The translations under genes and the position numbers were made by a program. A stretch of DNA of 32,000 nucleotides from Aquabacterium sp. CECT 9606 (GTDB lineage: Bacteria > Pseudomonadota > Gammaproteobacteria > Burkholderiales > Burkholderiaceae_C): NCBI RefSeq assembly GCF_918741295.1, contig NZ_CAKKNB010000003.1, positions 652,668-684,667 on the forward strand, written 5' to 3'. Below, piece by piece: positions 22,882-26,943 of this stretch (positions are counted from its first letter, which is position 1; each line of letters starts with the position of its first letter). The notes below the pieces were generated by a model, which was not told the DNA's origin, did no database searches, and saw nothing but the letters and a program-made list of their open reading frames with translations.

Positions 22882-23154
22882 TGAGTATTCGGCGCCAACA
22901 ATATGAAATTCGACTTGAAAATGCGATGCGCGCCGGTCTGAATGGTGCTCTACGGAATGACCACCAACAAACTTCAGCCACCACGCAAAAGCGCCCAACT
23001 TCATCGTCAATTCGCCATGGCGTCTGCGAAAGTGCAGCCACGCCCCCCTTGAGCACCGCTGCCCACCCTGGCCATACTGCGATGGCTACCTGTGGACATC
23101 GCGTCCACGAAGCCTTCAATGGAGATTTCGGTCTCCCTGAAGTCCAGCATCGCT

Positions 23155-23177
23155 GGCGTCGCAGTCGTGACCTGCCT
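23155..23177 (+). repeat. Repeat box 1, copy A (GGCGTCGCAGTCGTGACCTGCCT)
   Basis: 22 of 23 nt are identical to 25870-25892. Both copies lie upstream of a + strand ORF start. Confidence 0.8.
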
Positions 23178-23322
23178 TGTAGACGCGGAACTCCGGTTCA
23201 GCCTGGCCATTTCGGTGGCCATGTGTTTTGTTCTGCCCTCGGGCTGAACCTTCTGCTGTCGGCACACCTTGCGGTGTTGCCACCGAGCCGCTTCATCCAT
23301 CAAGACTGAAGCATCCCAAGCT

Positions 23323-23385
23323 GGGGAACCATGTTCCCCACTGGGAAGGTGCGTTCCCCTTCACTTCCAGAAGGAGAACGCCATG
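23323..23385 (+). promoter_or_regulatory. Repeat box 2, copy A: conserved structured leader ending in the RBS/start of a small ORF
   Basis: GGGGAACCATGTTCCCCACTGGGAAGGTGCGTTCCCCTTCACTTCCAGAAGGAGAACGCCATG aligns with 25930-25995. It contains the 7-bp palindrome GGGGAAC-CAT-GTTCCCC. Confidence 0.6.
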
Positions 23386-23559
23386 TTCGCATCTCAAGCG
23401 ACGATGGATGCGCGCGCCATCAGCGTGCTGATGGGAGGCTCCGGGCGTGCCCGCGAGCCTGTGATCCGCCAAGCAGTGCTACCCGCACTGTTGATGCCTC
23501 GACCTCCGATTTTACCACCGGCTGAACGGGCATTTGAGTACATCGCAGCGGCAGCGTGA
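23383..23559 (+). CDS. Small hypothetical protein (58 aa)
   Basis: A strong RBS AAGGAGA lies 6 nt before the ATG. The product MFASQATMDARAISVLMGG... has no recognisable family. Confidence 0.45.
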   Translation: MFASQATMDARAISVLMGGSGRAREPVIRQAVLPALLMPRPPILPPAERAFEYIAAAA

Positions 23560-23664
23560 CCTCCATGGCTCACGCCACCCTGCTGCATCAGCATTTCAAC
23601 CCCTGGGGAGTCCACCATCTTCCCACCGGGACAGGTGTGCCCTCCGTTTTCTGGAGATCACACC

Positions 23665-24192
23665 ATGTCCTATGAGAAATCGCGTGTTCGCCCCAAGCGG
23701 ACCTGCATCGAGATCGAAGAAGCACGCGCCTGGGTTGGCTTTTACCGACGTGTCAGCAGCGACCCCGCTGTTGCCACCGAAGTGATGGCCCAACTTGAGG
23801 CCGTGCCCGAGATGAAGCGCGCCCACCTGGCCCTGTACCTGTGTTGCAAGGAATCCTTGCGCACGCACAAGGCCACGCAAGCTCGCAACAAGCGGATCGG
23901 CCAGTTCGTGCGCTGGCTGGCCCATGGTTTGGTGATCGTGCCTGCGCAAAGCATGCTCAGGGCGCTCCACCAGGGCAGAGAGATGGCTGTCGAATGCCTG
24001 CCCATGATCGACACCAAAGCAGGCAAAGAGCCTGGCGTGCCTCAGGTTCGCCGCCTGAGGCAAGAGGCTGAGTTCGCCCAGGCCCAGGCATCGTTTGATG
24101 CGCAAGCCGGGGCCCCATCCAGCGAGCCCGCATCCACACCCGCTGTGAACAAGGCTTCGCCCCAGCCCAAGGCTGCGCCCACCGCAGCTTGA
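23665..24192 (+). CDS. Hypothetical protein (175 aa) with Ala/Pro/Gln-rich tail
   Basis: Start at MSYEKSRVRPKRT behind GGAGA. The third-position G/C bias favours this strand over the overlapping minus-strand ORF. Confidence 0.6.
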   Translation: MSYEKSRVRPKRTCIEIEEARAWVGFYRRVSSDPAVATEVMAQLEAVPEMKRAHLALYLCCKESLRTHKATQARNKRIGQFVRWLAHGLVIVPAQSMLRALHQGREMAVECLPMIDTKAGKEPGVPQVRRLRQEAEFAQAQASFDAQAGAPSSEPASTPAVNKASPQPKAAPTAA

Positions 24193-24376
24193 GCTTGCAG
24201 CACGTCATGGACTTGCTGTCCTGACGGTGGCTCACCGACACCACCCCTGGTGAGCCCAGATCGTCGAACGCGCATGCCCACCCCAGCGGTGGTGCATGCC
24301 GCGTTCGCCCCCTCCCAACGTCGCCCGCCTCGATTTGCCATTGGCAGATCGGCGCCCCCTTATGAAAGGACTCCCC

Positions 24377-24607
24377 ATGGCCACCGTTGCCGAAACCCTG
24401 CATGCCATTGAGGTGCGTGCCGATCGCGCCATCGTCCAGGAACTGCGCTTGCTGATCAAGGAAGTGCAGGCGCTCCAGCCCTCACTGCTGGGGGACGACC
24501 GCGCGCATGCCCATGCGCTGTTGCTTAAGCTCGATCACCTGCGCCAAAGCCAGGTGGTGGACAGCATCGGCGATCAAGCATTTTTCTTGTTGTCAGCCCA
24601 AGGCTGA
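24377..24607 (+). CDS. Small helical hypothetical protein (76 aa)
   Basis: Start at MATVAETL behind AAGGA. Codon bias is consistent with the neighbouring genes. Confidence 0.5.
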   Translation: MATVAETLHAIEVRADRAIVQELRLLIKEVQALQPSLLGDDRAHAHALLLKLDHLRQSQVVDSIGDQAFFLLSAQG

Positions 24608-24682
24608 TACCCATTCATCACGCCTGCGGGGCCCACGGCCCTGGCGGCGGTGCGTCCCCAGGTTTCCACCGAAGGAACCCTC

Positions 24683-25354
24683 ATGGACAAGGTCACACTC
24701 AACCCTGAGCAAAAGCTCTACGTCATCGCGGCTGAATCAGGCTACAGCTGCTTTGGCTTTGACAACGCCCGCGATCATGCCAACCAGATCGCGCGACAAC
24801 TTGGCAGAAGCGATCTGGCCTTCACGGCAGACGACTACGCCGCGCTGGCGGGCTATCAGAAATACCTGGATGCAACAGCCGAATGGGGATGCTCGCCACT
24901 GAGCCAAGGCACCTACTTTGCGCCCAGGACGGACCCCAAAGCGGCCAAGGTGCTGGAGGCCTATCGCCGAAGTGGCCAGACGATCCGCTTGATATTGGGT
25001 GACCTCACCACAGGCGAATCCTGGCTTGATGAGCACGGTGTGGTCGGCCGCATCGGTCGTTCTGGCGGCTGGCTCAAAGTCCCATTGCTGGTCGAGCCTG
25101 GTGAGTCGGGTGGTGGTGCCATCCTGACCAATTGCATCCTGTGCCTGGTTGACTGGCACACAGGCAAAACACCGTATCGACATCCAGCTTACCGCGAAGC
25201 CAACCTGAGCCTATCGCCCAACGAAGAACACACCCTGCCATGGGCGGTGAAGCGTGGGGATGAGGCCATCGCCTGCTTCAAGGACATCGGCAAGGCTGCG
25301 GCCTACCTGGCCTTCATGCGTGGCGCCACCATCGAGCCGAGCGTCTTTGCCTGA
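24683..25354 (+). CDS. Hypothetical protein (223 aa)
   Basis: Start at MDKVTLNPEQ behind AAGGAA. The composition looks globular and I recognise no motif. Confidence 0.65.
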   Translation: MDKVTLNPEQKLYVIAAESGYSCFGFDNARDHANQIARQLGRSDLAFTADDYAALAGYQKYLDATAEWGCSPLSQGTYFAPRTDPKAAKVLEAYRRSGQTIRLILGDLTTGESWLDEHGVVGRIGRSGGWLKVPLLVEPGESGGGAILTNCILCLVDWHTGKTPYRHPAYREANLSLSPNEEHTLPWAVKRGDEAIACFKDIGKAAAYLAFMRGATIEPSVFA

Positions 25355-25384
25355 AGACCTGCGCGCCTGTTGGTCGTTGAGGCT

Positions 25385-25600
25385 CTAAGCCGCCTCACGG
25401 CACCGCTGGTACTCGCGGTCAATCAGCCAGTGCAAGAACTGCGTCTCCTTGGAGACGCCCCAGTAATGGGCCTTGCACAGCGCAATGTAGGCCGCCAGGT
25501 CGCTGAGTGATCGAATGCCGACGGGCTCCAGGTCGGTGATCTTCTTGAAGCGTTCGATCTCTCGCCGTGTCAGTCGAATGTGTTGGCCAAAACGAATCAT
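25385..25600 (-). CDS. Small hypothetical protein (71 aa), the only minus-strand gene in the array
   Basis: MIRFGQHIRLTRREIERFKKI... has good third-position G/C bias and is convergent with the 223-aa gene. The RBS is weak. Confidence 0.4.
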   Translation of the reverse strand: MIRFGQHIRLTRREIERFKKITDLEPVGIRSLSDLAAYIALCKAHYWGVSKETQFLHWLIDREYQRCREAA

Positions 25601-25869
25601 GGTCGTGCTCGCTGCATCGATTCAATGAGCACATCTTGTTCAAATCTCCGCCCCTTGTCACTGGTTTTGGCCAGAGATGGATGAAGATTTTTCCATTGCA
25701 AATTCAGTGACAGTCCGTTGTCACAGCACTGTGCCGCACGCAATCCCCCGGGTCGCCGGGCTGTTGGCGGTGGCATCGCCCGGCCAGCGCTTGAACACCC
25801 CGGGCAGGCCGACCACACTGCGCCATGCCTCCCGCATTCCATCGCGGAATGCCCTCCCGACCTTGCGTC

Positions 25870-25892
25870 GGCGTCGCAGTCGTCACCTGCCT
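25870..25892 (+). repeat. Repeat box 1, copy B (GGCGTCGCAGTCGTCACCTGCCT)
   Basis: See 23155-23177. Confidence 0.8.
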
Positions 25893-25929
25893 CATCAACC
25901 GTGCTGGCCTCGCGTCAGCACCTCCTGAG

Positions 25930-25995
25930 CGGGAACCTCCTTCCCCTCGGGGTTGGACGTTCCCGCTTTTCCTTTTTGTGAAGGAGAAATCCGTG
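25930..25995 (+). promoter_or_regulatory. Repeat box 2, copy B: conserved leader ending in the RBS/start of radC
   Basis: CGGGAACCTCCTTCCCCTCGGGGTTGGACGTTCCCGCTTTTCCTTTTTGTGAAGGAGAAATCCGTG aligns with 23323-23385. Confidence 0.6.
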
Positions 25996-26574
25996 AATGT
26001 CACTCATATGTCCAACACCGAACTGGTCAGCGAACTGCTCGCTGCACCTACTCGCCTTGAATCCCCCCATGCGCCCTGTGCCTGCAACCCAGCAGCCGCC
26101 TACCGGGCCGTTGATCAGGATCTGCCCGAACTGGCTCACAAGCTCAGCGTCGCGCGTGAACTGCTGTTGCGCAAGCTGCGCGCCAAGATGCTGGAGGGGC
26201 CCATCATGGCTTCACCCAGTGCCGTTAAAGACTGGTTGTGCCTGTACTGCGCCGGATTGCAGCACGAGGTTTTCCTTGTGATGTACCTGGACTCGCAGCA
26301 GGTCCTGATTGAGGCCGAAGAGCTCTTTCGGGGCACGCTGACCCAGACCTCGGTCTACCCACGCGAAGTGGTCAAAGGCGCGCTGGCACGCAATGCAGCA
26401 GCTGTGCTGTTGGCACACAACCACCCGAGCGGCCAAGTAGACCCCAGCCCGGCAGACGAGCTCTTGACCCAGACTCTGAAATCATCTTTGATGCTGGTTG
26501 ACGTGCGCGTGCTCGACCACTTCATCGTGGGCGGTGACCGGGTCACGTCATTTGCAGAAAGGGGCTTGCTGTGA
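25993..26574 (+). CDS. radC: RadC-like JAB/MPN domain protein
   Basis: Start at GTG 25993 (6 nt after AAGGAG) or ATG 26008. EVFLVMYLDSQ...VYPREVVKGALARNAAAVLLAHNHPSG...PSPADELLT...VRVLDHFIVG contains the JAMM HNHPSG motif. Confidence 0.9.
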   Translation: MNVTHMSNTELVSELLAAPTRLESPHAPCACNPAAAYRAVDQDLPELAHKLSVARELLLRKLRAKMLEGPIMASPSAVKDWLCLYCAGLQHEVFLVMYLDSQQVLIEAEELFRGTLTQTSVYPREVVKGALARNAAAVLLAHNHPSGQVDPSPADELLTQTLKSSLMLVDVRVLDHFIVGGDRVTSFAERGLL

Positions 26575-26634: not shown

Positions 26635-26943
26635 TTGGATAACATCATCGTGACCAGGTTGTTGGAACTGGTCGAGCCTCTGGCCGCCTTGTCGATCTGC
26701 CACCTGACGGCCACCACGCGCCAGAAGCTGGCCAATGACGACCTGTCGGTCAACGTGTACCCGAACGACTATGGTGGTTTCGTCTATGTGGGCTCGCCGC
26801 CCTACACGGTGCCCGCTGAAAGCGACATGGCCATGATCTTCGAATTGGCCAGATTGGCAGGCATCGTCTGGCTCAAGTTCGACAGCGATGCGGCCATCTT
26901 GGAAGGCCTGCCCGTCTTTGACGACCTCGACCAGGGCCATTGA
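26635..26943 (+). CDS. Hypothetical protein (102 aa) immediately after radC
   Basis: TTG start behind AGAGGAG. LSICHLTATTRQKL...YGGFVYVG...IVWLKFDSDAAILEGLPVFD. A good terminator follows. Confidence 0.6.
   Translation: MDNIIVTRLLELVEPLAALSICHLTATTRQKLANDDLSVNVYPNDYGGFVYVGSPPYTVPAESDMAMIFELARLAGIVWLKFDSDAAILEGLPVFDDLDQGH

Follow-up and report, generated by a model that had tools for sequence, protein, structure and literature searches.

Conserved, modular and structured leader RNAs head four units of a conjugative island in Aquabacterium

The stretch of DNA analysed here (the window, G000:C3:652668-684667) comprises 32,000 nucleotides (nt) of the genome of Aquabacterium sp. CECT 9606 and belongs to one of two related islands of that genome. 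The island holding the window extends over C3:~629-820 kb and the second one over C1:~1216-1372 kb; the two are 70-85% identical at the nucleotide level, lie in opposite orientation and carry different cargo. Their conjugation genes encode a MobH relaxase, an SXT-type TraD and the F-type proteins TraC, TraU, TraN, TraH, TraG, TraV and TraK, and because of this MobH/F-type set the islands were assigned to the SXT/R391-IncC conjugation lineage and not to that of ICEclc. A ParM-like actin, a ParB-like protein, an SF1 helicase, a primase-like protein, DUF932 and DUF1173 proteins and an FlhC-like protein are encoded as well. The window left of ~22.9 kb is cargo, with catabolic genes and an IS5-family insertion. 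Right of it, one noncoding leader (leader A) precedes an operon that begins with an open reading frame (ORF) of 58 amino acids (aa), and another (leader B) precedes a radC gene. It was concluded that a conserved, modular, structured leader RNA heads these two units and two others of the island, those of int and alpA.

A preliminary description of the window, made from its letters, had proposed that a two-part leader is repeated in front of the small ORF and radC, and both parts were found where it had placed them. Box 1 (GGCGTCGCAGTCGT(G/C)ACCTGCCT) has copies at 23155-23177 and 25870-25892, which agree at 22 of 23 nt. Box 2 occurs at 23323-23385 and 25930-25995, with GGGGAAC, GTTCCCC and GTTCCC shared at spacings of 10 and 19-20 nt, and both copies are followed by GAAGGAGAA and a start codon. 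The spacers between the boxes measure 145 and 37 nt, as had been claimed. The features of leader A are listed below, where class A denotes the leaders of the small-ORF operon in this and related islands, SD the Shine-Dalgarno sequence and PWM a position weight matrix.

23049-23078, forward strand: predicted sigma-70-type promoter with the -35 element TTGAGC (23049-23054), an 18-nt spacer and the -10 element CATACT (23073-23078), based on class-A conservation
23092-23108, forward strand: 5' hairpin GUGGAC-AUCGC-GUCCAC, 99% paired in 41 sequences
23114-23142, forward strand: extended helix CUUCA..GGAGAU-UUCG-GUCUCC..UGAAG with a UNCG-type tetraloop, strongly covarying, a single position having up to 6 pair types
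23144-23156, forward strand: hairpin CCAGC-AUC-GCUGG abutting Box 1, invariant in class A, so that class A gives no covariation evidence for it
23157-23176, forward strand: Box 1 core, copy A, consisting of CGUC and a hairpin of GCAG (23161-23164), the 7-nt loop UCGUGAC and CUGC (23172-23175), from the PWM and alignment
23177-23312, forward strand: variable hairpin-rich spacer including a terminator-like hairpin (23204-23221) with UGUGUUUUGU behind it; class-A leaders conserve this hairpin but not its U tract
23313-23362, forward strand: Box 2 of leader A, with the mutually complementary segments 0 (AUCCC), 1 (GGGGAAC), 2 (GUUCCCC), 3 (GGGAAG) and 4 (GUUCCCCUUC)
23353-23379, forward strand: anti-SD GUUCCCCUUC paired with the SD region GAAGGAGAAC, 9 of 10 positions complementary, in the minimum-free-energy fold of most class-A leaders
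23383-23559, forward strand: conserved 58-aa ORF (MFA..VLLGGSG.AR..PALLKP), first gene of the class-A operon, from a protein alignment of 15 loci

The corresponding features of leader B are as follows.

25791-25819, forward strand: predicted promoter with the -35 element TTGAAC (25791-25796), a 17-nt spacer and the -10 element CACACT (25814-25819), based on radC-class conservation
25834-25852, forward strand: 5' hairpin GCAUUCC-AUCGC-GGAAUGC, whose stem covaries across radC leaders (13 G-U against 2 A-C)
25857-25871, forward strand: hairpin CCGAC-CUUGC-GUCGG abutting Box 1; relatives have CCGGCC-nnn-GGCCGG
25872-25891, forward strand: Box 1 core, copy B, with the loop UCGUCAC, from the PWM and alignment
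25901-25921, forward strand: class-specific hairpin GUGCUG...CAGCAC, from the radC-class alignment and fold
25929-25979, forward strand: Box 2 of leader B, a long hairpin GCGGGAAC...GUUCCCGC (25929-25966) followed by UUUUCCUUUUUGU, terminator-like, from an RNAalifold helix with G-U/A-U/G-C variation and from folds
25980-26574, forward strand: SD GAAGGAGAAA (25980-25989) and radC, starting with GTG at 25993 and encoding a RadC-like JAB domain (Pfam PF04002, E = 7e-41)

The hairpin at 25834-25852 had also been noticed in the preliminary description, where it was placed between the boxes; the hairpin itself was recovered, and it lies upstream of Box 1 copy B.

The search for Box 1 was extended beyond the window, as had been suggested, and gave eight copies in the genome and many more in relatives. 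In the whole-genome PWM scan the eight sites, four per island, scored 33-42, and the next best match scored 18. The genes located 3' of the sites are an integrase gene (int, with the domains Phage_int_SAM_2 and Integrase_1), an AlpA-family gene, the 58-aa-ORF operon (copy A) and radC (copy B). Every copy is oriented as its gene, and that of alpA runs opposite to the other three in this genome and in four other complete genomes. No tra gene was preceded by Box 1, the genome-wide scan having found the eight leader sites only. An exact scan for the 18 fixed bases of the 20-nt Box 1 core, with one genome per species, returned at least 119 genome stretches, mostly from Burkholderiales and Rhodocyclales and spanning dozens of genera, about 12 of them being obvious chance matches in unrelated phyla. 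Cultured carriers include Aquabacterium commune DSM 11901, Thauera butanivorans NBRC 103042, Dechloromonas agitata and Piscinibacter sakaiensis 201-F6. The genes 3' of Box 1 in the relatives were of the four kinds known from this genome, namely int, alpA, radC-like genes and the small-ORF operon. Five complete genomes were examined, and all five carried a MobH relaxase gene; four of them had four sites per island in the three-plus-one orientation, and the fifth had three scattered sites. About 60 class-A leaders were also retrieved from metagenomes through a neighbouring anchor (CCTGAAGTCCAGC..GCTGG), so that Box 1 itself was not used for sampling. Box 1 copies were absent from 72,556 PLSDB plasmids and 2.9 million viral contigs. 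A scan allowing two mismatches in 300 genomes of the order was mostly noise and did not rise above its control with the reversed pattern, and a literature search with the motif string gave unrelated eukaryotic matches only.

These data bear on the simplest alternative, according to which the boxes resemble each other by chance or through a recent local duplication and have no function. Such an explanation could draw on the window itself, which shows only two copies. However, a Box 1 pair was obtained in none of 100 dinucleotide shuffles, so zero matches are expected by chance, and orthologous copies have been kept in the second, diverged island (75% identical) and in dozens of genera. A local duplication including coding sequence, which would have undone the preliminary proposal, was ruled out because the 58-aa ORF and the RadC-like JAB protein are unrelated, and the similarity stops before the coding sequences. 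This alternative was regarded as refuted.

The position of Box 1 relative to transcription was predicted from conserved promoter-like motifs. A motif TTGAnn, 17±1 nt, nAnACT was conserved 5' of Box 1 in class-specific alignments of three leader classes. It read TTGAGC...CATACT in class A, where TTGA and A.ACT were invariant or nearly so at fixed spacing in 21 leaders from different genera, CTTGAA...CACACT or GAAACT in 15 radC-type leaders, and TTGACC...TCAACT in the int class. The spacers between the two elements were not conserved across the classes. Transcription would start near 23085 for leader A and near 25826 for leader B, so that Box 1 would lie at about +72 in the former and +46 in the latter. 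In the class-A, radC and int leaders measured, it lies ~45-70 nt into the predicted transcript, and its distance downstream of the conserved -10 is 52-78 nt. No conserved -10-like element followed Box 1 in the class alignments. Since the conserved -35 and -10 elements lie upstream of it, Box 1 is predicted to be within the transcript. A sigma-54 promoter or a second promoter in or after Box 1 was rejected on inspection, as the spacing did not fit and no -10 was conserved.

The region between the predicted start and Box 1 was found to be highly structured. Class-A helices were scored in 41 non-redundant leaders from genomes and metagenomes; they were 98% paired and two-sided changes occurred in 11 of 26 pairs, values reached by none of 500 shuffles, and slid controls were only 32-43% paired. 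In the 5' hairpin at 23092-23108, four of six pairs were changed on both sides, with 36 G-U against 1 A-C combinations, and the apical loops of the extended helix were mostly UUCG, UCCG or CUCG. A hairpin ending 0-4 nt 5' of CGUCGCAG was present in 69% of non-redundant leaders and at 34% of control positions. Read on the sense strand, the class-A helices contained 69 G-U and 6 A-C combinations, and 109 G-U and 26 A-C were counted over all scored helices, some of which were poorly aligned. The large excess of G-U over A-C indicates that the sense strand is the folded strand. Folding of the sense strand fits an mRNA leader and not a template-strand Frpo element.

The same evidence bears on the single-stranded promoters of the Frpo/ssi type that had been suggested in the preliminary description. 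The boxes would then act as promoters or priming sites on the transferred DNA strand after its entry into the recipient. The hairpin-rich regions with their strong single-strand folding (z = -5.5 to -6.1), the kind of genes behind them (radC and small unknown ORFs, as in leading regions) and the primase-like protein encoded by the element would all agree with this. Nevertheless, the wobble polarity puts the structure on the sense and not the template strand, and the inversion of one copy in each set of four means that a single transferred strand could not offer all of them in a usable orientation. Moreover, there are short local hairpins only, none of them a long one rebuilding a -35/-10 pair, and an ordinary duplex promoter is conserved upstream. 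The Frpo/ssi explanation was therefore considered very improbable.

The Box 1 core was predicted by RNAalifold to fold as GCAG-UCGWNAC-CUGC, with a stem of four base pairs (bp) and a loop of 7 nt. In an alignment of 48 sequences, the four pairs were 100% paired; the third pair was A-U in 41 and G-C in 7 sequences, and the count of two-sided cells was reached by none of 500 shuffles. Among the ~60 anchor-sampled class-A leaders, a fixed Box 1 position was changed in two, one of which carried the double change A7G + U17C, and the flanks had majority frequencies of 59-74%. When all fetched loci were re-scanned with up to three mismatches, 14 variants were found in 176 distinct contexts; eight of the 14 were exactly A7G + U17C, and one had a G-U in the outer pair. 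A one-sided change at the A-U pair was not found in any of the 176 contexts. Both versions, A-U and G-C, occurred on the same contigs (L043, L061, L077, L132 and L153, for example). If a DNA site tolerated both pairs, half-changed sites should occur as well, and none was found. A leader peptide was rejected as the cause of conservation: the variable base is at the wobble position of one frame, but that frame is not kept across the classes, and the remaining wobble positions never vary.

The GCGG/CCGC form of Box 1 was also observed in a fifth leader class, present in some relatives (L043, L132, L153 and L037), where the hairpins ACGCCC-tat-GGGCGT and CCCGA..TCGGG precede it.

An operator for a regulator encoded by the element had been a further suggestion of the preliminary description. 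Box 1 would then be a site in duplex DNA, bound either by an FlhC-like activator of the SetCD/AcaCD type or by a repressor blocking elongation at +45 to +70, and int, alpA and the early genes would be switched on or off jointly. The islands belong to the MobH/F-type lineage of SXT/R391 and IncC and carry an FlhC-like gene, the SetCD boxes of SXT precede int and xis (PMC4344509), Box 1 is conserved at the DNA level in four copies per element, and its GCAG/CTGC dyad with the symmetric GCGG/CCGC variant would suit a dimeric protein. Against this, SetCD and AcaCD boxes are directly 5' of the -35, whereas Box 1 is 3' of the predicted -35/-10 with no -10 after it, and it heads no tra gene. In addition, Box 1 is always oriented as its gene and stands at a fixed distance amid hairpins that covary on the sense strand, and its A-U and G-C versions coexist in one element as paired double changes, with one G-U variant and no half-changed site. 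An operator function was thus judged unlikely for Box 1.

An operator would fit better at another motif, termed Box U, which lies upstream of the promoters in either orientation. Two rows of the feature list refer to it, both with low confidence.

23010-23022, forward strand: Box U (ATTCGCCATGGCG), a candidate DNA operator ~27 nt 5' of the leader-A -35; a related motif occurs in class A and int leaders
25732-25744, reverse strand: Box U reversed (TGCCGCACGCAAT), ~47 nt 5' of the leader-B -35, in radC leaders

A motif related to (C)GnTTGCGGGTGGCA or ATTGATCATGGCG was found upstream of the -35 in one orientation in class A and int leaders (the latter in L006 and its relatives) and reversed in radC leaders. 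Because it is independent of orientation, as expected of the site of a DNA-binding regulator, Box U might be bound by a transcription factor of the island and is, with low confidence, a better operator candidate than Box 1. A genome-wide scan for Box U with three mismatches stayed at background level, the motif being degenerate.

Of 72 leaders, 31 had a terminator-like hairpin on the sense strand downstream of Box 1; such hairpins were found in 3 of 72 when the antisense strand of that stretch was read, and in 7 of 72 upstream. Termination proper is doubtful in class A, since the U tracts are poorly conserved there. Box 2 was found in radC and small-ORF leaders, and about half of the true Box 1 leaders have it; it was absent from the int and alpA leaders, in which Box 1 is present. 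It is a module separate from Box 1, built of four GGGRAC/GUYCCC segments. In the minimum-free-energy fold of leader A, the pairing of segments 0 and 3 encloses the hairpin of segments 1 and 2. The segments AUCCC, GGGGAC, GUCCCC, GGGAnn and GUUCCC permit several folds, among which covariation cannot choose. Predicted accessibility of the SD was 0.21 in the leaders and 0.37 in 300 control genes of the same genome (p ~1e-6, a value overstated by the relatedness of the leader sequences). In leader B, the terminator-like call was at 25948-25965, followed by CUUUUCCUUU, and the CU tract can pair with the SD as well; a GC-rich hairpin with a directly following U/C-rich tract was found in most of 16 radC-type leaders. 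A translational control structure, as put forward in the preliminary description, is thus supported for Box 2 by the anti-SD pairing and the terminator-like hairpin.

An element resembling Box 2 was also seen apart from any Box 1 at C3:776592-776660 (L016:12592-12660) and at C1:1269469 on the reverse strand. It is located within an operon, between the primase-like and DUF932 genes, and reads GGGGAU..AUCCCC..GGG..GUCCCCG, followed by CUUUUCUUUU and an SD.

The arrangement of the two boxes also bears on whether Box 1 with its flanking helices could be a self-contained RNA, either a ligand aptamer or a self-cleaving or processing site. Invariant nucleotides between covarying helices are typical of aptamers and ribozymes, and Box 2 resembles an expression platform. 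On the other hand, the stretch between Box 1 and Box 2 varies in sequence and in length (37 to at least 145 nt), and in the int and alpA leaders no Box 2 accompanies Box 1. For these reasons, the two boxes are not linked through alternative pairing. With 4 bp in its hairpin and 4 nt in its tail, the conserved core is small for an aptamer, and the leaders matched no Rfam ribozyme or riboswitch. A self-contained RNA was accordingly rated improbable, although less so than the Frpo/ssi promoters.

Based on all the data, we proposed that the boxes are modules of a new family of structured cis-regulatory leader RNAs, which would control four island units after transcription initiation; a probability of about 60% was assigned to this proposal. 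The leaders, ~100-600 nt long and heavily folded, would head int, alpA, radC and the 58-aa-ORF operon of an integrative and conjugative element (ICE) with MobH and an F-type type IV secretion system. Each leader would start at its own sigma-70-like promoter and open with one or two covarying hairpins. Box 1 would be the recognition hairpin for a single trans-acting factor of the element or the host, acting on the nascent RNA or the elongating polymerase. It was read in this way because Box 1 is invariant, variably spaced, uncoupled from Box 2 and shared by four units. One such factor would tie together the four units, and with them integration, excision and the early genes. The most economical guess for its role would be antitermination of the nut/put kind, or else binding by an RNA-binding regulator; a nut/put-like role is suggested because the distance from Box 1 to the gene varies (37 to more than 500 nt) and terminator-like hairpins follow. 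Box 2, confined to the radC and small-ORF leaders, would be a four-segment switch beside the ribosome-binding site. Its last segment with the CU-rich tract would either pair with the SD or form a terminator of a hairpin and a U tract, and the genes behind it would be held off by default. The copies and their conservation, the RNA-type covariation, the polarity of the sense strand, the promoter-like motif 5' of Box 1 and the complementarity of the anti-SD were shown directly; the transcription start, the Box 1 factor and the direction of regulation are what we infer. The more specific version, in which a novel processive antitermination or RNA-hairpin-binding system would load at Box 1 in the manner of nut sites and so couple the four units, is offered tentatively, as a possibility with the odds against it.

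Several observations weigh against the proposed RNA function. A consensus promoter scan called no promoter in the leaders, the leader-A promoter scored below 9/12 and the -10 elements are weak, so that the promoters and the transcription of Box 1 are predicted from conservation alone. U tracts are weak in many leaders and poorly conserved after the class-A hairpins, and single-sequence folding energies were equally good for both strands. The G-C variants of Box 1 may descend from few events, and a symmetric change would also preserve a dyad in DNA. A search for a partner RNA complementary to Box 1, in the element or genome or among host RNAs, returned only 9-12-mers at chance level, and no NusG paralog was found on the island.

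If Box 1 is indeed nut-like, excision and establishment of the island would be decided after transcription initiation and not at promoters, whereas the control of ICE excision and transfer is known mainly at the promoter level (SetCD, AcaCD, BisDC). The leader family offers a way to test how island mobility is controlled after initiation. It is also a candidate for a new RNA family in a widespread and cargo-rich family of betaproteobacterial islands, whose cargo in this genome includes alkane-oxidation and metal-resistance genes, and the 20-nt signature of Box 1 can serve to find such islands, with their four regulatory units, in genomic and metagenomic sequence.

Some further features of the locus were recorded. 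The first ORF of the class-A operon is 57-61 aa long in 15 related loci, with the pattern MFA.P.TRE.R..VLLGGSG.AR...PALLKP; Pfam and NCBIfam searches with the 58-aa ORF gave no match, and no family match was obtained for the small proteins of the class-A operon. The gene 3' of radC (26635-26943, forward strand) matches DUF5983 (PF19419, E = 3e-18). A divergent 71-aa ORF (25385-25600, reverse strand) lies 5' of the radC leader promoter, and the AT-richer stretch between the two contains a perfect inverted repeat, GTGACA-gtccgt-TGTCAC (25707-25724), which may be a local operator. A tRNA-His gene is located ~2 kb past the tra end of the C3 island copy. The FlhC-like ORF of the window's own island scored 34 bits in NCBIfam against a curated cut-off of 216, and the copy in the second island matched Pfam FlhC with 35 bits. 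Two other FlhC matches, C1:718652-719164 and 722106-722618 (both on the reverse strand), have identical scores of 279.8 bits and lie 3.4 kb apart; they represent a duplication of the flagellar master regulator or a repeat in the assembly.

The leaders were finally compared with known systems. Lambdoid nut sites consist of boxA and a boxB hairpin, and the put sites of HK022 are cis-acting antiterminator RNAs. As in these, a short invariant hairpin with a linear tail is found in the (here predicted) transcribed leaders of several operons of one mobile element, at variable distance from the gene and followed by terminator-like hairpins; the CGUC element with the 4-bp, 7-nt-loop hairpin would correspond to the conserved hairpin and linear element that are recognised as RNA in nut-type sites. 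Unlike nut and put, Box 1 shares no sequence similarity with them, has a loop of 7 nt instead of 5, and occurs at four sites per element, in front of int, alpA and radC and not of early phage operons, and no N-like protein or NusG paralog was identified here. A site of the RfaH/ops kind was rejected, as no NusG paralog was found on the island.

Frpo and ssi are single-stranded promoters of F and IncI plasmids, and Frpo folds in the template strand. The islands likewise have hairpin-rich noncoding DNA before early-type genes of a conjugative element, but they differ from Frpo and ssi in the strand that folds, in the inversion of one copy and in the lack of a rebuilt -35/-10.

Among the mobile-element leader motifs in Rfam, radC, int-alpA and STAXI are structured noncoding elements upstream of such genes, and the present leaders are similarly conserved structured elements 5' of radC, integrase and alpA genes on mobile DNA. 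With Rfam 15, no match at gathering thresholds was obtained in the window, and nothing above noise was seen for 22900-26100 at E <= 10. In nine loci, the int, alpA and radC leaders yielded at E <= 1 nothing but an unrelated nhaA-I riboswitch. An nhaA-I (Na+) riboswitch match of 43.8 bits, above the gathering score, was located at L099:3871-3930 (reverse strand) in Dechloromonas sp. CZR5, where it adjoins a class-A leader on the opposite strand and is unrelated to the leader family.

SetCD and AcaCD boxes are degenerate 19-bp DNA sites just 5' of the -35, which are also found before tra operons (PMC4344509, PMC4207636). The islands are of the same lineage (MobH, SXT-type TraD, an F-type type IV secretion system and an FlhC-like gene) and have a motif before int and an excision-type gene; in contrast, Box 1 is invariant, located downstream of the promoter, absent from tra and behaves as an RNA hairpin. 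Identity with such a box was rejected on its position and its absence from tra genes. In ICEclc, a 27-bp motif precedes int, alpA and further core genes at a distance of 59-274 bp (PMC9286271, S3 Fig; PMC12409273). This BisDC/bisS system resembles the islands in having a shared motif upstream of int and alpA and a ParB-like protein encoded on the element. It belongs to a different ICE family without the MobH/F-type set, and its motif is treated as a DNA-binding site; the 27-bp MEME motif could not be aligned with Box 1, and the BisDC promoter motif was rejected on this ground and on the MobH/F-type nature of the element. The AlpA protein of Pseudomonas aeruginosa exerts antitermination past leader terminators, and its binding element is duplex DNA between the -35 and -10, GGGACG-N5-GGTA (PMC7969949). 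A gene named alpA is common to both systems, and the intrinsic terminators to be bypassed in the leaders of AlpA targets have terminator-like hairpins as counterparts here, whereas in the islands the promoter spacers are not conserved across the classes and Box 1 is far downstream. By the features tested, the leaders could be assigned neither to Frpo/ssi, to the SetCD/AcaCD boxes or the ICEclc motif, nor to the Rfam models. Homologous to none of the systems compared, the leader would work in the manner of nut-type sites, attenuators and SD-sequestering switches.

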